From IMG/VR virus record IMGVR_UViG_2728369591_000003: a stretch of 40,367 nt of DNA. One strand, written 5' to 3'. Below the pieces are notes generated by a model. It worked only from the letters and a program-made list of their open reading frames with translations. It made no database searches and was not told the origin of the DNA. A program made the position numbers and the translations under genes. Positions 30,412 to 40,367 of this stretch are shown here, in pieces (the first letter of the stretch is position 1; every line of letters begins with the position of its first letter). The DNA is from a virus. Its lineage: Duplodnaviria; Heunggongvirae; Uroviricota; Caudoviricetes.

Positions 30412-32426
30412 AAGAGCTGTGCTATGGATCTGTTTGCAGTGGAATTGAAGCCGCGAGTATTGCCTGGGAACCGTTGGGTATGCGTCCGGCGTGGTTTGCT
30501 GAAATCGAGCCTTTTCCATCTGCCGTTCTTGCGCACCGCTGGCCCCATGTCGCCAACCTTGGCGACATGACAAAACTTGCCAAAAAAGTCCTGGCTGGGG
30601 AAATCGAATCCCCTGATGTGCTCGTCGGGGGAACACCTTGTCAGGCATTCAGTATCGCTGGATTACGTGGTGGGCTTGATGATGAGCGTGGCGCGCTAAC
30701 TTTAAAGTATGTGGAGCTTGCAAATGCAATTGACGACAAACGGGCTGAGTCATTTCTCAAACCGACAGTTATCGTCTGGGAAAATGTCCCAGGAGTCCTG
30801 TCATCGGCAGATAACGCCTTCGGATGTTTCCTTGCCGGATTGGCTGGAGAAGATGCGCCATTTGAACCAGGTGATCGACCTGAATCAGGAAAAAGTAACG
30901 CGTTCTGGCGGTGGGATGGCAAAACCGGTTGCCATGCTCCAAAGTGGCCGCAGTGTGGTTGTATTTATGGACCGCAGCGAAAGGTGGCCTGGAGAATCCT
31001 TGATGCCCAATACTTCGGAGTGGCACAACGACGCCGACGCGTGTTTGTTGTCGCAAGTGCTCGAACAGACCTCGATCCCGCAACGGTACTTTTTGAGTTC
31101 GAAGGCGTGCGCCGGAATATTGCGCCGAGCAGAGGCGAGGGGAAGGAAACTACCAGATATACTTCAGACATCGCTATCAGATCTTGCGATGATACAAACA
31201 TAGTTGCCATGGCACATGGGCAAGGAGGGGCTGAGATAAAAACCGATAATTCGGCACCAACTTTGACATGTAACCATGAAGCACCAATTGTATTGCTCGG
31301 CGACGGTAGAATGCGCCGTCTTACCCCTGTCGAATGTGAAAGGCTGCAAGGTTTTCCTGATGGGCATACGTTGATCCCGACGGAAAAGCGTAAAAAAGTT
31401 AATTCAGATGAACTGGCATATCTTCGCAATCACTATCCAGATTTAAGCGAAGAAGAGGCCGCGATGCTTGCAGCTGACGGACCGCGTTACAAAGCGATCG
31501 GCAATAGTATGGCAATACCAGTAATGTGCTGGATTGGCGATCGGATTACTAAGGCCGTATGTCGGCAGAAAGAAGGAAGTGAAACAAAAGAGCGAAAAGT
31601 TAAACCAGCGGCAGAATTCGAACGGTCCATATTCAAATGGGCTGGTGGAAAATTTGGTGTTCTGGAACAAATCTTTCGCTATTTGCCAGAAGGGAAGCGC
31701 CTGATCGAACCTTTTGTCGGTGGCGGAGCTGTCTTCACGAATGCCGGATACCAGGAAAATCTGCTAAATGATGTGAATGCTGACCTGATTAACTTTTACA
31801 AGACTCTGCAACGCGAGGCGCATTCACTTATCACACTGGCGCATCGTTTCTTCCAGGACTACAACACACAGGAAGGATACCTGGCAGTACGGAATGCGTT
31901 TAACAAACAAGTCTATGATGATTTACATCGCGCAGCGGCGTTTTTGTTCCTGAACCGACATTGTTTTAACGGATTGACGCGTTACAACCAGGCCGGTGAG
32001 TTCAATGTCGGTTACGGGAAGTATAAAACTCCGTATTTCCCATTACAGGAGATGGAAGCCTTCCTCGGTGCGGAAGGGCGGTCTGAGTTTGTATGCGGTG
32101 ATTTTGCAGCGGTGATTGAAGCTGCCGGAGAAGGAGATGTCATCTTTTGCGATCCGCCGTATGAACCGCTTCCAAATACAGAGGGATTCACGAACTATTC
32201 CGGTCATGACTTTAAGTTTGAAGAGCAAAAACGCCTGGTGTCTCTGTTGACGGATGCTCATCGTCGAGGTGCAAAGGTTCTCATTACTAACAGTGGCGCG
32301 CCAAACATCAGAGAGCTTTATCATGACAGTGGCTTCAGAGTGGAACCTCTTTTTGCCAGACGTTCTGTGTCTTGTAAGGGGGACACTCGAGGTGTAGCTC
32401 ATGACGTTTTGGGTATATTGCTCTAA
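30408..32426 (+). CDS. dmt: Bifunctional DNA methyltransferase (672 aa): N-terminal C5-cytosine MTase fused to C-terminal Dam-like N6-adenine MTase
   Basis: GTG start overlapping the hrdC stop, after GGAGAGG. N-terminal half has C5-MTase motifs ([10 protein letters not shown]; [12 protein letters not shown]; ENVPGV). C-terminal half has Dam-type motifs (FKWAGGK; [10 protein letters not shown]; DPPY). Same fusion architecture as P1 Dmt. Confidence 0.9.
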
Positions 32427-32443
32427 TAAATTTATTAGTGTAA
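32417..32443. promoter_or_regulatory. Perfect C1 operator 17-mer overlapping the dmt stop codon, with an inverted partner half-site
   Basis: ATTGCTCTAATAAATTT at 32417-32433 is an exact consensus match and encodes the last residues and stop of Dmt. The overlapping CACTAATAAATTT on the opposite strand (to 32443) forms a second, imperfect site in inverted orientation. Confidence 0.55.
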
Positions 32444-32607
32444 TATCGCCTCAATGAATCGTGATTTATAGAGCGATTTAGCTGTTAGCCGCGACAGGCG
32501 CGGCGGTAAGCATGGCTGGGCCTAGTCCTCCCAGACAAACCACCGAGTTGCCAGGTTGACCATGCGCCTAAGTGGCAACGCCGAAGTGCGTTACGAGCTT
32601 CCAGTTT

Positions 32608-33098: not shown

Positions 33099-33174
33099 GA
33101 TGGTGTAGCTCAGTTGGTAGAGCGCCTGCCTTGTAAGCAGGATGTCAGCGGTTCGAGTCCGTTAATCGGCACCA
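33099..33174 (+). tRNA. tRNA-Thr(UGU)-like gene with an imperfect acceptor stem (possibly degenerate)
   Basis: 76 nt ending in encoded CCA. D arm (GCTC AGTTGGTA GAGC), anticodon arm (CCTGC CTTGTAA GCAGG, anticodon UGU) and T arm (AGCGG TTCGAGT CCGTT) are canonical. The 5' acceptor strand GATGGTG pairs with the 3' strand AATCGGC at only 5 of 7 positions (two G-U pairs, two mismatches). Confidence 0.45.
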
Positions 33175-33684: not shown

Positions 33685-33766
33685 GGTAAGAGCATTCTCC
33701 TGTAACGGGTTCATATCCCAATCTACAGGTCCACCAAGAATGCTCTTTCCGTTGCGGTGAATGCGG
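33685..33766 (+). repeat. Structured repeat element, copy B
   Basis: Stem AAGAGCATTCT / AGAATGCTCTT (33688-33698 with 33737-33747) encloses the core CTGTAACGGGTTCATATCCCAATCTACAGG. The core is conserved with copy A while the stems differ but stay complementary. Shared 3' flank GYGGTGAATGC. Confidence 0.55.
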
Positions 33767-33906
33767 CTAAGCGCACGCGGGGAAATGGTTATATCAGTCC
33801 ATTCATTTCTCCTTGTTTCCCCGTCCACGGTGGATAACCAGCCAAAGGACACCGGGAGGCACCCGGCACCGCAGCTTTTTTATTCGTTAAATAATGGAGT
33901 GAGAGG

Positions 33907-34143
33907 ATGCAGAACAATCCGAACAAATGTCGAACGCTATGGGTGCGGTTATATATTTATGCCGTCCTCTGTTTGATTGTGTCACTGGTTCTGTATGTTT
34001 GGCTTTTGCCAAATATGATCTCATCTAACAGCACAATACTTGTATTGTTGGGAGTCCTTCTCGCGCTCATTTACCCGGCTTTCGCAGTAGTCTTTTTTCG
34101 TGAAAAAACCAGGAAATTAATTAATGAAAAAAACGTTGATTAG
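33907..34143 (+). CDS. upl: Small two-TM membrane protein (78 aa), upl position
   Basis: ATG at 33907 with GGAG RBS. Two hydrophobic helices. Overlaps the start of the downstream SPFH lipoprotein gene. Confidence 0.5.
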   Translation: MQNNPNKCRTLWVRLYIYAVLCLIVSLVLYVWLLPNMISSNSTILVLLGVLLALIYPAFAVVFFREKTRKLINEKNVD

Positions 34144-34951
34144 TGCAGCGATTATTTTGGGTTCTTTATGTCTGACCGGATGCGATCGGGTAGAGCCAGG
34201 TAACGTAGGGATCAAAGTAAATAAGCTGGGGGATGATAAAGGTATCGGTGAAGTAGTTGGCGTTGGTCGCTACTGGACAGGCTTGAATACTGAAGTTTAT
34301 ATCTTCCCGACCTTTAAGCAAATGAAGACATACGATGAGCCGTTCAGCTTCCAGATGAGCGACGGAACAACCATTGGTTACCACATCGGCGTAGCCTACA
34401 AGGTTGATCCAGCAAAAGTCACAACGGTATTTCAGACCTATCGCAAAGGTGTAGATGATATTACTGATACCGATCTACGCCAGAAGGTTGCAGATGCTCT
34501 GAACCGGTTAGCCAGCAAAATGACCACCGACAAATTTATCGACGGTGGCAAATCTGAATTGCTTGATGCAGCCCTTAAAGACATTCAGGAAGAAATGACG
34601 CCAATCGGCATTCAGGTGATGAGCCTCTCTTATGTAGGTAAGCCAGAATACCCGCCAACAGTTATTGACAGTATTAACGCCAAAGTCACGGCAAACCAAA
34701 AAACCCTGCAACGCGAGCAAGAGGTCAAACAACGTGAAGCAGAGGCCAACATGCTGCGCGCGGAAGCTGCCGGACAGGCTGATGCTATTCGCACAAAAGC
34801 CCAGGCCGAAGCTGATGCCATTCGTTTACGTGGTGAAGCTCTGCGCCAGAACCCCGGTGTTATGGAGTTGGAAGCGATCAACAAATGGAACGGTACATTA
34901 CCGCAGTATATGACCAGTAATACCGCTGTTCCGTTTGTTCCGGTGAAATAA
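34124..34951 (+). CDS. plp: SPFH/band-7 (prohibitin-like) lipoprotein (275 aa)
   Basis: ATG at 34124 with AGGAAA RBS. Lipobox LTGC. Then an SPFH-like core and a C-terminal Ala/Glu/Arg/Gln-rich coiled coil (QREQEVKQREAEANMLRAEAAGQADAIRTKAQAEADAIRLRGEALRQ). Confidence 0.7.
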   Translation: MKKTLISAAIILGSLCLTGCDRVEPGNVGIKVNKLGDDKGIGEVVGVGRYWTGLNTEVYIFPTFKQMKTYDEPFSFQMSDGTTIGYHIGVAYKVDPAKVTTVFQTYRKGVDDITDTDLRQKVADALNRLASKMTTDKFIDGGKSELLDAALKDIQEEMTPIGIQVMSLSYVGKPEYPPTVIDSINAKVTANQKTLQREQEVKQREAEANMLRAEAAGQADAIRTKAQAEADAIRLRGEALRQNPGVMELEAINKWNGTLPQYMTSNTAVPFVPVK

Positions 34952-34978: not shown

Positions 34979-35054
34979 GGCCCTTTAGCTCAGTGGTTAG
35001 AGCTGGCGACTCATAATCGCACGGTCACCGGTTCAAGTCCGGTAGGGGCCACCA
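34979..35054 (+). tRNA. tRNA-Ile2 (anticodon CAU, lysidine type)
   Basis: 76 nt. Acceptor GGCCCTT/AGGGGCC, D arm GCTC AGTGGTTA GAGC, anticodon loop CTCATAA, T arm ACCGG TTCAAGT CCGGT, CCA encoded. Close to E. coli ileX rather than initiator or elongator tRNA-Met. Confidence 0.85.
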
Positions 35055-35340
35055 TATTTGGTTGTAACACGGCGTCTGGCACATGCGTCGTTAGCGGTCT
35101 GGTGACGTTAAAAGGGGGGAACCTTGCCCCTAGCTCAGGCAACGAACCAGGTAGCCGGAATGTGCAAGCCACCGTTTGTTGTTTCTCGGGTAAAGGGATT
35201 CACCATCCTGGCGATTCGGTGTGACAGCCGGGAAGAGTCCGGCGCATTAATCCTGATTTTCTGGTGATGACTCATATCGTTAGGAGTGATTTGAGTATGC
35301 CGATTATATCTGACATTCAGCACGCCTGGGTGGAGTGCTA

Positions 35341-36705
35341 ATGTCTGCATCCCCTCTTGAATCCATGCCAAATTCCCTTAGTGCAGAACAAGCTGTACTT
35401 GGTGGCTTAATGCTTGATAACTGCCGCTGGGATGAAGTTGCAGATCGTATAGTTGCTGATGATTTTTATACCAGTGCTCATCGTGAAATTTTCAGTGAGA
35501 TGGAGAGGTTATTAAGTCATGGCAAACCGATTGATTTGATAACACTTGCTGAAGCACTTGAACAGAACGGTAAATTAGAACGCGCCGGTGGTTTTGCGTA
35601 CCTTGCGGAGATGTCAAAGAACACGCCCAGCGCGGCAAATATTTGTGCTTATGCCGATATCGTTCGTGAACGCGCGGTTGTTCGTGAAATGATTTCCGTC
35701 GCAAATGAAATAGCCGAAGCTGGATATGCGCAGGATGGCAGGGGCAGCAATGAATTGCTGGATATGGCCGAGCGCCGCGTTTTTGAAATAGCTGAAAAAC
35801 GACAAAAGAGCGGTAGTGGTCCAAAAGATATCGCCAGCATTCTCGATGCGACGGTATCTCGCATAGAAGAGTTGTTTCAGCGACCACATGATGGTGTAAC
35901 GGGGCTTGATACGGGATTTACCGATCTCAATAAGAAGACGGCAGGGCTTCAGCCGTCCGATCTCATCATTGTCGCCGCCCGCCCATCTATGGGGAAGACC
36001 ACGTTTGCGATGAATCTCGTCGAAAATGCCGCAGTTCGTAACGATAAGCCCGTATTGGTTTTTAGCCTTGAGATGCCGAGCCACCAGCTGATGATGCGCT
36101 CACTGGCTTCTCTTGCACGCGTTGATCAGACTCGTATTCGGACAGGGCAACTTAACGACGAGGATTGGGCGCGGGTTTCTGGCGCAATGGGTATTCTGTT
36201 GGACAAGCAGAATATTTTTATTGATGACTCAAGCGCCCTGACGCCGACAGAGCTACGTTCCCGCGCTCGTCGTGTTTATAAAGAAAATGGTGGTTTGAGC
36301 ATGATTATGATCGACTACCTGCAACTTATGCGCGTCCCCGAGCTGCAAGATAACCGAACGCTGGAAATTGCCGAGATTTCTCGCTCACTGAAGGCGTTGG
36401 CGAAGGAATTACAAGTACCGGTGGTGGCATTGTCACAACTTAATCGATCGCTTGAACAGCGTGCGGACAAACGACCGGTAAATTCAGATTTACGTGAATC
36501 AGGAGCAATTGAGCAGGACGCAGACCTGATTATGTTTCTGTATCGCGACGAAGTTTATCACCCGGATAGCGAAATGAAGGGCATTGCCGAGGTAATTATC
36601 GGAAAGCAACGAAATGGCCCAATTGGCACGGTGAGATTGGCTTTTAACGGCCAATACTCACGGTTTGATAACTATGCCGGTGCTGACTGGCAAGAGGATT
36701 ATTAA
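35341..36705 (+). CDS. ban: Ban replicative DNA helicase (DnaB family, ~454 aa)
   Basis: Walker A RPSMGKTTFAMN; DnaB-type N-terminal domain (LGGLMLDN...) and C-terminal RecA-like domain (DYLQLM...ALSQLNRSLEQR). ATG at 35341 with GGAG RBS; the track start at 35335 is a GTG two codons earlier. A 14-codon upstream ORF (35297-35341) ends in TAATG overlapping the ban start. Confidence 0.9.
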   Translation: MSASPLESMPNSLSAEQAVLGGLMLDNCRWDEVADRIVADDFYTSAHREIFSEMERLLSHGKPIDLITLAEALEQNGKLERAGGFAYLAEMSKNTPSAANICAYADIVRERAVVREMISVANEIAEAGYAQDGRGSNELLDMAERRVFEIAEKRQKSGSGPKDIASILDATVSRIEELFQRPHDGVTGLDTGFTDLNKKTAGLQPSDLIIVAARPSMGKTTFAMNLVENAAVRNDKPVLVFSLEMPSHQLMMRSLASLARVDQTRIRTGQLNDEDWARVSGAMGILLDKQNIFIDDSSALTPTELRSRARRVYKENGGLSMIMIDYLQLMRVPELQDNRTLEIAEISRSLKALAKELQVPVVALSQLNRSLEQRADKRPVNSDLRESGAIEQDADLIMFLYRDEVYHPDSEMKGIAEVIIGKQRNGPIGTVRLAFNGQYSRFDNYAGADWQEDY

Positions 36706-37703
36706 TGCAATGGAATGAGGAAAAGCCGATGAACATCCTGATCATTGGGCGAAAATTTGCAGCCATCAGTGATGTGAAAACATATACGGAAATGTGGTCT
36801 TATAACCTGGCCTGCGCCTTTAGTGAGGCAGGGGTAACATTGCAATACCATCGTCCATATTCCCCTGGCGTCGAAAGCCCGGAGGATTATGTTGAAGCTG
36901 TGTTGACTGCTGCGACCGCATGTTCTGCGAAGGCCATTTTGGCACCAGGATTGAGGTATTTTACTACGGTACCCAGGGAAATAGGCATGCAACTGTGTCG
37001 CCGATTCTCTGGATGGGTAGCCCAGGTATATGACGGTTCTATGCTGGATTCGGCACCAGTCGATATTACTTTTACTGTCCGCGATGATACCTGGCGGTAC
37101 CTGGATAATCCCGGCAGGTTAGAGCGTCATAATCGTTTTAACAAACATGTTGGATGGGCAGCGAATCAGGAGCTGTTCCATCTGGAAACCAAAACAGACG
37201 ATATTCTGCGTATTTTTGTAGACCACGCTGCATTTGATGTTAGTGGTTTTGATCACTCCTTAAGTATCCTTATGAACCTTCAGCGTCTGACCGTTCCGTA
37301 TGAGGCCAGAACGTTGACTGATGACGGATTGGTTACCATTGATCCGGGGAATATTTCGGTAACTCCATACAGGCGGACGCCGGTGCCAGCAACCGAATTT
37401 GCAGCTGAATTGCGTAAGAGTGACGTTTTTATCGTTACGCATCCCGAAAGCCTTGGATTAACTGTTCTTGAGGCGGCAATGTGTGGAGCGTTGATATTAA
37501 CTCCGCCCGATTGCCTTCCGCCGGATCGCCTGGAGTTGGTGAACCATATGGTTATCAAGTCGCGGATTGATTGGGATGAGGTTATTGCTCGCGTTGATCG
37601 CGTGAAAAATGCTGAAAAGGTCCAGTGTCACACCTGGTCGGCAATTGCGGAAAAGATGCTTGAGACGTTTATCACGCAGAAACCGTCGCGCGGTAACGGA
37701 TAA
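36705..37703 (+). CDS. GT-B fold glycosyltransferase (GT4-like, 332 aa)
   Basis: ATG overlapping the ban stop (TAATG). C-terminal domain carries the E-x7-E signature in the context HPESLGLTVLEAAMCGALILTP, as in retaining GT4 enzymes. N-terminus MNILIIGRKF is typical of a GT-B N-domain. Confidence 0.55.
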   Translation: MQWNEEKPMNILIIGRKFAAISDVKTYTEMWSYNLACAFSEAGVTLQYHRPYSPGVESPEDYVEAVLTAATACSAKAILAPGLRYFTTVPREIGMQLCRRFSGWVAQVYDGSMLDSAPVDITFTVRDDTWRYLDNPGRLERHNRFNKHVGWAANQELFHLETKTDDILRIFVDHAAFDVSGFDHSLSILMNLQRLTVPYEARTLTDDGLVTIDPGNISVTPYRRTPVPATEFAAELRKSDVFIVTHPESLGLTVLEAAMCGALILTPPDCLPPDRLELVNHMVIKSRIDWDEVIARVDRVKNAEKVQCHTWSAIAEKMLETFITQKPSRGNG

Positions 37704-37724
37704 AAAATTGAACCCGTCATAACA

Positions 37725-37749
37725 GAAAAGCCCGATCGCCGGGCTTTTC

Positions 37750-37750
<1 letters not shown>
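37725..37750. terminator. Bidirectional terminator between the glycosyltransferase gene and the convergent baseplate operon
   Basis: AAAAGCCCG atcg CCGGGCTTTTCTT: a GC stem with flanking A and T runs. Confidence 0.55.

Positions 37751-40367
<2,617 letters not shown>

Follow-up and report, generated by a model that had tools for sequence, protein, structure and literature searches.

Introduction

Few phages have been used in genetics as much as P1, and phage-plasmids of the P1 type are frequent in Enterobacteriaceae of the gut. Four genes of this much-used phage, dbn, pmgO, pmgP, and pmgQ, have no assigned function. Among the glycan-modifying systems described in phages, the Gtr systems, which lysogens express, combine a flippase in the membrane with a GT2 bactoprenol glucosyltransferase and a polytopic transferase that is also membrane-bound. 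Two reports describe glycans carried by capsid and tail-tube subunits of mycobacteriophages (PMC11256854, PMC12619734). Here we analyze the dbn gene in a 40,367-nt stretch of DNA from a member of the Caudoviricetes (IMG/VR record IMGVR_UViG_2728369591_000003; hereafter the window, to which all coordinates refer) and relate it to the three pmg genes. The link of dbn with these genes, suggested by gene context, is the new point of this work.

Identity and Expression of dbn

A 332-aa ORF with an ATG start occupies exactly positions 36705-37703 on the + strand. It is the dbn gene of phage P1, as annotated there: its DNA is 98-99.7% identical to deposited P1-type genomes, with 98.1% nucleotide identity to P1 (NC_005856) over 100% of the ORF and 98.0% to "glt" of P7 over the full 999 nt, and the window differs from P1 and P7 dbn in allelic changes only. 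The neighbors are likewise those of P1 and P7, with ban upstream and the convergent baseplate gene 5 downstream (210-aa homolog at 37750-38382, - strand). The ban operon itself differs in one respect, having an SPFH-domain gene at the place occupied by tciA-tciC in reference P1. In the P1 record Dbn is YP_006544, "downstream of ban"; its label is "possible glycosyltransferase" in GenBank and "glycosyltransferase family 4 protein" in RefSeq. Both the gene and this annotation were already known, and a preliminary description of the window, made from the sequence by itself, did not identify the gene as P1 dbn; as written, its finding goes nowhere beyond the existing annotation.

The same description was right that the ORF is a gene. 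In 75 of 81 P1-like loci the alignment runs full length from Met9 to the same stop, with neither frameshift nor premature stop (the remaining six have a differing 3' end or are contig fragments), and the median pN/pS over 48 alleles from P1-like loci is 0.12. For these reasons dbn is not a chance ORF, and it is under purifying selection.

The gene directly upstream in the same operon is ban (35335-36705, + strand), which encodes a DnaB-like replicative helicase of 456 aa according to the P1 annotation and to Pfam DnaB_C and DnaB matches (PF03796, E 5e-108; PF00772, E 2.7e-35). The ban stop codon TAA (36703-36705) and the annotated dbn ATG (36705) share one base in a TAATG junction (36703-36707, + strand), an overlap noted in the preliminary description and kept at 72 of 81 P1-like ban-dbn junctions, with TGATG at two others. 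Distant Dbn homologs, however, all start at the position of Met9 (MK/MN-ILIIG), and in seven P1-like contigs, where an inserted 101-aa ORF separates ban from dbn, the dbn start codon is the Met9-equivalent ATG and forms part of an ATGA overlap. The conserved protein, of 324 aa, therefore starts at the Met9 ATG (36729-36731, + strand), 23 nt past the ban stop, where GAGGAA lies 7-8 nt upstream; a GAGGA-type Shine-Dalgarno sequence is present at both candidate ATGs. Translational coupling to ban, claimed earlier, is therefore plausible, but the TAATG overlap belongs to the annotated ATG and not to the conserved start. The annotated start of P7 glt lies 135 nt further downstream and would cost the fold its first strand and helix.

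Two overlapping C1 repressor operators (Oban, formerly Op72ab; 32417-32444) stand at the head of the ban-dbn operon, as exact and two-mismatch matches to ATTGCTCTAATAAATTT on opposite strands, in agreement with the P1 annotation of Obanab. The window holds five C1 operator matches where 0.13 would be expected. dbn lies in the C1-repressed ban operon. C1 operators precede both relevant P1 operons, ban-dbn and pmgN-pmgQ, and because both have C1-controlled sigma-70 promoters, expression of dbn and the pmg genes in P1 would be early and not strictly late. Downstream, between dbn (+) and gene 5 (-), a GC-rich hairpin with a T run on both strands (37724-37750) is a predicted bidirectional terminator; it was missed by a simple terminator scan and detected by RNA folding (-17.6 kcal/mol, z -3.6, on the + strand; -19.1 kcal/mol, z -2.9, on the - strand).

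Fold and Conserved Motifs

The AF2 model of Dbn (pLDDT 87.8) has two Rossmann-like beta/alpha/beta domains and a C-terminal helix that returns to the N-domain, which is the GT-B layout. Model secondary structure and conservation in 128 family members delimit the N-terminal domain, presumably the acceptor side, at about residues 9-160 (36729-37184, + strand), with conserved residues R84, D110, D120, and GWAA150-153. The C-terminal domain, about residues 165-315 (37197-37649, + strand), is assigned to the nucleotide-sugar side by the model, Pfam, and structure comparison. Sequence similarity to GT4 is weak. The Pfam match to Glycos_transf_1 (PF00534) covers residues 229-315 only and scores 23.9 bits (E 3.4e-5), below the curated cut-off of 26.4 bits, which a distant family member exceeds (28.4 bits); no N-terminal GT4-type domain (Glyco_transf_4 / Glyco_trans_4_4) was matched by Pfam. 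NCBIfam gave a sub-threshold match to a sucrose-phosphate-synthase domain and none at family level, and the PHROGs match was to a family of unknown function. A profile search of PDB chains was uninformative (a spurious match to the Rossmann protein KtrA, and PimA at E 0.86), and fold comparison was used after it.

The C-terminal domain contains an EX7E motif, E248-x7-E256 (37446-37472, + strand), in the segment TH246PESLGLTVLEAAMCG, with E248 conserved in 99% and E256 in 100% of the 128 members; together with H246 it makes up a conserved H-x-E-x7-E nucleotide-sugar motif. The canonical G-R...K phosphate-binding residues were not found; an invariant D173-H174 (37221-37226, + strand; 100% of 128 members, and also in A1/A2/A5) lies at the end of the first C-domain strand, where we take canonical GT4 enzymes to have G-R, an equivalence by motif reading and not by superposition. 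Given D-H for G-R, the donor chemistry of Dbn may be atypical. No transmembrane segment was found in Dbn, PmgO, PmgP, or PmgQ (maximum 19-residue Kyte-Doolittle mean <1.6). Dbn is soluble and cytoplasmic, and the fold of its model, a two-domain GT-B, comes nearest to the retaining GT4 enzymes. The earlier reading of a GT-B sugar transferase with an E-x7-E motif thus agrees with the model, with structure comparison, and with conservation across the family.

Family Distribution and Gene Context

As far as profile searches tell, the Dbn family is small and distinct: its profile collected no more than 376 clusters (E<=1e-3) from 1.84 billion representatives, with divergence down to about 20-25% identity. 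It is rare outside phages and metagenomes. A scan of species-representative genomes gave only two dbn loci, one P1-like and the other a 209-bp fragment, and cluster look-up of ten distant members returned metagenomic singletons only, on short contigs. A viral scan with the first alignment recovered P1-like loci only; non-P1 loci were reached with a sub-alignment of distant members. Among the bacterial homologs, one from Colwellia (40% identity over 330 aa, with an in-frame stop in the gene) lies with KpsM/T/D-like genes and an MptE-like gene, and a metagenomic locus (L220) pairs a Dbn homolog with a KpsC/S-type Capsule_synth gene.

In unrelated phages, the genes for Dbn homologs share an operon, side by side, with those for homologs of PmgQ, PmgO, and PmgP of P1. 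The order is PmgO-PmgP-189aa-Dbn-PmgQ in one locus (L003), PmgP-Dbn-PmgQ-PmgO in another (L004), and PmgO-PmgP-Dbn-PmgQ in the cultured coliphage EP_H11, and the one-operon arrangement is also seen in L094-L104 and others. In P1 itself, pmgO, pmgP, and pmgQ lie a few kilobases from dbn, and full-length copies of all three occur within 10 kb downstream of dbn in 65 of 72 P1-like loci. Two natural fusions were found, PmgO(19-227)+Dbn(219-520) in P0089 and Dbn with the 189-aa protein of L003 in P0151. An initial impression that PmgQ follows Dbn in every non-P1 locus (13/13 in a small sample) gave way in a larger one, where PmgQ adjoins Dbn in about 17 of some 29 non-P1 loci, frequently and not universally.

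The partners resemble glycosyltransferases themselves. PmgQ has a GT-A fold, is GT8-like, and carries an invariant DxD, while PmgO and PmgP are both GT42 sialyltransferase/Maf-like (profile matches to CstII, E 3.6e-6; CstI, 7e-5; Maf, 5.7e-4). Further neighbors are of glycan-tailoring types, namely SAM and FkbM methyltransferases, a polysaccharide pyruvyl transferase, a GDP-mannose 4,6-dehydratase, a DegT aminotransferase, and a KdsB/NeuA-type cytidylyltransferase. Because of the shared operons and the PmgO-Dbn fusion, a neighborhood conserved across unrelated genomes, Dbn probably supplies one step in a glycan assembly line with four enzymes.

Discussion

We tentatively propose, giving the idea somewhat less than an even chance, that Dbn elongates a short phage-made glycan together with PmgO, PmgP, and PmgQ, and that the acceptor is most likely a virion protein. 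PmgO and PmgP would start or extend the glycan with a CMP-activated keto-acid sugar, CMP-Kdo being the keto-acid donor on offer in E. coli K-12. Dbn would perform one elongation step, a configuration-retaining transfer whose sugar donor is a nucleotide-sugar, probably a UDP-hexose, with E256 holding the nucleotide ribose and E248/H246 the sugar, and PmgQ would extend the glycan with another hexose. Release from C1 repression would turn the genes on, which means during lytic growth, and the product would be placed on a phage-made virion protein (capsid or tail). There it would form a glycan coat that the phage can do without, comparable to those of mycobacteriophages and giant viruses.

The choice of a virion protein is the weakest step of this scheme, a first guess among acceptors. 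It is suggested by the place of the module between tail sheath and tape-measure genes in L099 and L102 and between head and head-tail-joining genes in L094, by PmgO and PmgQ genes directly after the major capsid gene in Onishia and Martelella prophages (L170, L172), and by structure comparison, in which a Tupanvirus glycosyltransferase is much the nearest viral match (E 1.4e-17, TM 0.77/0.81). The position of the module varies, however: it lies among recombinase/helicase genes in L100, L103, and L104, as in P1, and among small early genes in EP_H11, and a structural-gene neighborhood has been reported for DNA-glycosylating clusters as well, which weakens the link. The early expression of both P1 operons also speaks against a virion protein. 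The capsid proteins beside PmgO/PmgQ in L170 and L172 show no obvious Ser/Thr-rich C-terminal tail of the kind found in glycosylated mycobacteriophage capsids. The P1 virion proteome paper is silent on glycosylation, and there is no report of a glycosylated virion protein of P1, nor of a glycan detected on any P1 protein. Mutants that lack dbn, pmgO, pmgP, or pmgQ show no plaquing phenotype, and dbn is dispensable in the laboratory (PMC9024508). The preliminary description had offered a choice between host surface glycan and phage DNA and had held the substrate to be beyond inference from sequence. That choice omits virion protein, at least as likely judging by gene contexts, and the second view was too pessimistic, since neighborhood, fusions, and published knockouts narrow the acceptor.

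The main rival, which we consider unlikely, is a host envelope glycolipid. Dbn, PmgQ, and PmgO/PmgP would work on the cytoplasmic side of the inner membrane, where they would modify lipid A-core, for instance by attaching one more Kdo in the manner of WaaZ and then hexoses, or another lipid-linked glycan, and host export would display the altered glycan; the P1 receptor (LPS core) would be altered, which would keep progeny from being lost to debris or would lower superinfection. The bacterial members in two Kps-type capsule loci (KpsM/T/D; KpsC/S-like) point to such acceptors and away from virion proteins, and the MptE-like neighbor in Colwellia has a weak WaaZ_KDO_III match. GT4, GT8, and GT42 are also families that build LPS/LOS cores, which counts in the same direction. 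Soluble enzymes with no exporter of their own are what one would expect of a set that feeds a host pathway, and in P1 the early, C1-controlled expression gives them the time they need. In several phages, however, the genes overlap with late structural genes, too late to replace LPS before lysis, and no Gtr-type flippase or membrane transferase lies alongside the Dbn/Pmg genes. Because C1 operators precede both P1 operons, the genes should be silent in lysogens, and classical lysogenic conversion is unlikely; we know of no LPS change reported in P1 lysogens.

A different reading, quite improbable in our view, concerns catalysis and not the acceptor: Dbn might be a degenerate GT-B protein that keeps the fold but no longer has the G-R and lysine that canonically bind phosphate, serving as a sugar-nucleotide-binding or scaffold subunit for PmgQ or PmgO, or using a non-nucleotide donor. 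The sub-threshold Pfam score with only the C-terminal third matching, the missing match to an N-terminal GT4 domain, and the invariant D-H for G-R are all consistent with this, as is the presence among the structural matches of non-catalytic GT-B partners (GtfB-type 3rhz, Asp1, Gap1). Yet the EX7E glutamates, H246, and several acidic residues of the N-domain are 95-100% conserved despite about 20-25% identity, which argues for catalysis, and purifying selection on dbn is strong.

Phage DNA as the acceptor, with the glycan on a modified base acting against restriction as for T4 glucosyltransferases or 5hmC-glycan clusters, is highly improbable, because no hydroxymethyl-base enzyme was seen in the neighborhoods and antirestriction was unchanged in the deletion mutant. 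In its favor are the place of dbn, which follows the replicative helicase gene and has dmt upstream (dmt encodes a methyltransferase that, by its annotation, may be a C5-cytosine enzyme too), the module between a UvsX-like recombinase and a helicase in L100, L103, and L104, and the known multi-GT clusters that put di- or trisaccharides on 5hmC and can sit near structural genes. Against it, neither a thymidylate-synthase-like hydroxymethylase nor a TET/JBP dioxygenase was among the 25 commonest Pfam families of 137 neighbor ORFs in nine non-P1 loci, a survey that could miss singletons; no acceptor-base enzyme (hydroxymethylase, TET/JBP-type) is annotated in the P1 regions inspected, where dmt may have a C5-methyltransferase part. 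To our knowledge the host DNA that P1 packages is unmodified, and no hydroxymethylated base is known from the phage. Generic GT4 enzymes outscore the DNA enzymes as matches to Dbn, and the neighbors, pyruvyl transferase and O-methyltransferases, are typical of polysaccharides and glycoproteins. In published work, dbn, pmgO, pmgP, and pmgQ are among 24 knockouts with unchanged antirestriction against the restriction systems used in that study (PMC9024508).

If dbn and the pmg genes are indeed linked, P1 has a small but complete line for glycan assembly, and nobody has yet searched for what it makes. The means of testing this are at hand: clean in-frame deletions are available for each of the four genes, as are protocols for virion purification and mass spectrometry. 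A glycan on virions would bear on antibody recognition of the phage and on phage stability, and one on LPS would bear on receptor masking. The fullest form of our proposal is that P1 and scattered phages of Gram-negative hosts put a short glycan on the proteins of their own virions, as a coat made by a four-enzyme module (GT42/Maf-like PmgO/PmgP, GT8-like PmgQ, GT4-like Dbn), starting from a CMP-activated keto-acid sugar such as Kdo. We regard it as doubtful; if true, a classical coliphage would for the first time be shown to have a virion glycosylation system, and four orphan P1 genes would gain a function.

Comparison With Known Systems

Dbn shares 8-15% identity with retaining GT-B enzymes of family GT4 (PimA, BshA, MshA, WaaG, WaaB, sucrose-phosphate synthase) and, at about 320 aa, is shorter than most of them. 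True members of its family are present in Kps-type (ABC-transporter-dependent) capsule loci, whereas the phage versions come without an exporter or Kdo-linker enzymes. Like Dbn, the Gtr serotype-conversion enzymes (GtrABC and related O-antigen modifiers) are sugar transferases of enterobacterial temperate phages, but Dbn and its partners lack membrane segments, have C1 operators upstream, and do not belong with the Gtr systems. The phage DNA glycosyltransferases (T4 alpha- and beta-GT, the 5hmC-glycan clusters of Pyle et al., and the HY126 GT) resemble Dbn in having a GT-B fold, in being phage-encoded, sometimes with several GTs in a row, and in that they may adjoin replication or structural genes. 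The virion glycosylation cassettes of mycobacteriophages (Che8 type) and giant viruses (PBCV-1 A64R; mimivirus/tupanvirus fibril) offer a functional analogy to Dbn and not membership, being without a demonstrated sequence relationship to it, and the hosts here are Gram-negative.

Identity and surroundings of dbn

The open reading frame at 36705-37703 on the plus strand of the window lies exactly where the preliminary description placed it, begins with ATG and spans 332 codons. A megablast search against phage records identified it as phage P1 gene dbn ("downstream of ban"), with 98.1% identity to NC_005856 72659-73657, up to 99.7% identity to other P1 isolates and 98.0% identity to the P7 gene glt. 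The P1 record annotates dbn as "function unknown, possible glycosyltransferase", P7 annotates its counterpart as "putative glycosyltransferase", and RefSeq names the RCS47 copy "glycosyltransferase family 4 protein", so that neither the gene nor its general interpretation is new to the databases. The upstream ORF, ban (35335-36705), encodes a DnaB-type helicase (DnaB_C, E 5e-108; DnaB N-terminal domain, E 2.7e-35), and its stop overlaps the dbn start as described, TAA and ATG having one base in common at 36705 (TAATG). A GC-rich hairpin at 37724-37750, with T runs after it on both strands, lies between dbn and a convergent 210-codon gene.

Among 81 P1-like loci, 75 align in full, from Met9 through to a shared stop codon, without frameshift or premature stop, and the other six show 3′-end differences or are fragments. 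The 75 full-length copies represent 48 alleles, with a median pN/pS of 0.12 over pairs showing 15 or more differences. The gene is functional; the window carries an ordinary allele of it.

Where reference P1 has tciA-tciB-tciC (TerB-like), the ban operon of the window encodes a hydrophobic protein of 78 aa (33907-34143) and an SPFH/Band 7 protein of 275 aa (34124-34951; PF01145, E 1e-30) whose N-terminus resembles that of a lipoprotein; 33907-34951 is a cargo swap in a C1-controlled early operon. Rfam places two tRNA genes in the operon leader, at 33099-33171 and 34979-35054. ARAGORN misses the former and reports only the latter, whose anticodon is CAT and which corresponds to P1 tRNA-Ile2. 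An STnc100-like sRNA match at 33753-33873 is sub-threshold (37.8 bits vs. a gathering score of 47).

Start codon

GAGGA-type ribosome-binding sequences precede both the annotated ATG and the ATG of Met9 (36729). Distant Dbn homologs all start at the Met9 position (MK/MN-ILIIG). Furthermore, seven P1-like contigs carry a 101-codon ORF between ban and dbn (L083 9699-10004 and six similar loci) that displaces the first eight codons of annotated dbn; dbn there starts at the Met9-equivalent ATG, which overlaps the stop of the inserted ORF (ATGA) and has AAGGAG ahead of it. Homolog starts and insertion variants thus indicate that the conserved protein begins at 36729. The translational coupling to ban proposed in the preliminary description is possible, given the overlap of the annotated ATG with the ban stop, and is not obligatory for dbn. 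The annotated start of P7 glt (L002 3136-3999) is a TTG lying 135 nt farther downstream than in P1; with it the N-terminal Rossmann domain would lose its first beta strand and helix, and it is probably a mis-annotation.

Fold and family

The E-x7-E motif is present (TH246-P-E248-SLGLTVL-E256-AAMCG), its glutamates encoded by GAA at 37446-37448 (E248) and GAG at 37470-37472 (E256). All 14 homologs share both residues, which are still 99-100% conserved across 128 family members as divergent as about 20-25% identity. AlphaFold2, run on the 14-sequence alignment, gives a model (mean pLDDT 87.8, pTM 0.85) with the two strand/helix domains of a GT-B layout. Pfam Glycos_transf_1 reaches only 23.9 bits (gathering threshold 26.4) and covers residues 229-315, Pfam gives no match to an N-terminal GT4 domain, an NCBIfam search returned nothing useful, and in the PDB the family profile matches PimA at no better than E 0.86. 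Where the first strand of the C-terminal domain ends, the Dbn family has D173-H174 (100% conserved) in place of the canonical GT4 G-R. At the sequence level the relation to GT4 is weak, and we therefore call Dbn GT4-like by fold and motif, short of formal family membership. The earlier reading of a GT4-like sugar transferase holds to that extent, and Dbn is predicted to work like a retaining GT4 enzyme.

When 5.8 billion proteins were searched by word index, only 22 clusters came back; an exhaustive HMM search across 1.84 billion representatives yielded just 376 at E ≤ 1e-3 and 127 at E ≤ 1e-30. These counts are tiny compared with the GT4 superfamily, so the Dbn profile sees only its own family. 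Dbn is its own small family, with the signature R84, D110, D120, G-W-A-A (150-153), D173-H174, D183, R224, F242, T245-H246-x-E248-S-x-G251, E256, G261, W290, and W311. By far its nearest viral structural neighbor is a 315-aa glycosyltransferase of Tupanvirus soda lake (BFVD A0A6N1NPH0; E 1.4e-17, TM 0.77/0.81; next viral structure 3e-10), which suggests that the family extends into Mimiviridae. In Colwellia sp., a Kps-type capsule locus contains a full-length homolog (L005 7713-8690, 15 contig copies; 40% identity over 330 aa) whose N-terminal domain is broken by one in-frame stop that recurs on every contig inspected; pseudogenization, read-through or gene splitting might each account for it.

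A proposed glycan module with PmgO, PmgP and PmgQ

In P1, some 7 kb separate dbn from pmgO, pmgP, ppp and pmgQ, which are found downstream, past the tail/baseplate block and outside the window, and pmgO, pmgP and pmgQ are all full length in 65 of the 72 P1-like loci with enough flank. Elsewhere their homologs adjoin dbn. The lambdoid phage contig L003 encodes, in order, PmgO, PmgP, a 189-aa protein, Dbn and PmgQ, with overlapping stops and starts; L004 has PmgP, Dbn, PmgQ, PmgO, and the cultured coliphage EP_H11 has PmgO, PmgP, Dbn, PmgQ. PmgQ follows Dbn directly or at most one gene away in 11 further viral contigs, and in a larger sample including metagenomes, of about 29 non-P1 loci about 17 have the two side by side. 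Large marine phage contigs show a second architecture: a 482-aa MptE-like/nucleotide-sugar-transferase protein, a polysaccharide pyruvyl transferase, Dbn and a methyltransferase, with a DegT aminotransferase, a GDP-mannose 4,6-dehydratase and a KdsB/NeuA-type cytidylyltransferase farther along. Fusion proteins agree with gene order: metagenomic P0089 (522 aa) combines PmgO-like (residues 19-227) and Dbn-like (219-520) parts, P0151 joins Dbn to the 189-aa protein of L003, and P0101 joins it to a SAM methyltransferase. Another metagenomic protein, P0102, carries the Dbn C-terminal domain in tandem duplication.

PmgO and PmgP are paralogs with weak MptE-like Pfam matches. Their joint profile finds the Campylobacter sialyltransferase CstII (GT42; E 3.6e-6), CstI (7e-5) and the flagellin glycosyltransferase Maf (E 5.7e-4), with GxGPSL and LxGxD motifs aligned. 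None of Dbn, PmgO, PmgP or PmgQ has a membrane segment. The other recurrent neighbors of Dbn homologs are enzymes that tailor sugars or act on sugar nucleotides: Methyltransf_11, FkbM, Methyltransf_24, pyruvyl transferase, GT8-like proteins and a cytidylyltransferase/cupin fusion. Dbn quite probably acts within a small glycan-assembly line, which would comprise one or two CMP-keto-acid-sugar transferases, a GT8-like hexosyltransferase and GT4-like Dbn.

The P1 gene ppp (L011 2261-2953), for a lambda-type Ser/Thr phosphatase, lies between pmgP and pmgQ; it looks like an insertion into the module, because the glycosyltransferase genes of other phages examined are contiguous without it. The P1-like phages MZ188976 (Cronobacter phage JK004) and OR339795 (Escherichia phage phi456) encode PmgQ (75 and 97% identity, respectively) and give no tblastn match to Dbn; Dbn can therefore be lost and PmgQ kept. 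A lone PmgQ homolog (49% identity) lies between lpd and acnB on the Candidatus Pantoea floridensis chromosome (L174 9001-9633), with no phage genes around it.

Possible acceptors

We infer, tentatively and at somewhat less than even likelihood, that the acceptor of Dbn is a virion protein. The module lies between tail sheath and tape-measure genes in L099 and L102, and between head and head-tail-joining genes, with an FkbM methyltransferase, in L094; in Onishia taeanensis and Martelella endophytica prophages PmgO and PmgQ directly follow the major capsid gene, overlapping connector genes. C1 operators precede both the ban-dbn and pmgN-pmgQ operons of P1, so expression is expected in lytic development rather than in the lysogen. 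The Tupanvirus structural match also favors a virion acceptor, and mycobacteriophages offer a precedent, their glycosyltransferases putting glycans on capsid and tail-tube subunits (PMC11256854, PMC12619734). Conversely, the module lies among recombination/replication genes in L100, L103 and L104 and among small early genes in EP_H11, clusters for DNA glycosylation have likewise been reported close to structural genes, and no glycosylated P1 protein is on record.

A host glycolipid is the next most probable acceptor, at well under even likelihood: GT4, GT8 and GT42 are exactly the LPS/LOS-core families, and bacterial Dbn family members occur in two Kps-type capsule loci, but both P1 operons are repressed in the lysogen and several phages carry the module in late operons. 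A non-catalytic or atypical role is improbable, and some other acceptor or role takes up what likelihood remains. DNA is the least probable acceptor, with a slight chance: dbn is close to ban and dmt, and T4 alpha-GT and HY126 GT are among the fold matches, but no hydroxymethylase or dioxygenase was found among the recurrent neighbor families, the neighbors are polysaccharide-type tailoring enzymes, and antirestriction was unchanged in 24 P1 knockouts including in-frame deletions of dbn, pmgO, pmgP and pmgQ (PMC9024508). These deletions also caused no plaquing defect (PMC9024508), and CRISPRi scored all four genes as non-essential (PMC10695390).

Relation to known systems

The gene is known, its annotation as a possible GT4-type glycosyltransferase predates this analysis, and the window holds an ordinary allele; the finding is therefore already known. 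The ORF, motif and layout of the preliminary description were borne out, its interpretation only in part. We came across no publication that connects dbn to pmgO, pmgP and pmgQ or suggests a Dbn target; the connection, a hypothesis, is the only part beyond current annotation. The finding as stated is ordinary, with one lead, a four-gene glycan module that possibly glycosylates the P1 virion. Dbn is not a Gtr-type seroconversion system, and the unchanged antirestriction of its deletion mutant speaks against a DNA glucosyltransferase. It departs from the GT4 family in its sub-threshold profile score, unmatched N-domain and altered phosphate-binding motif, whereas its predicted mode of working is that of the retaining GT4 enzymes.
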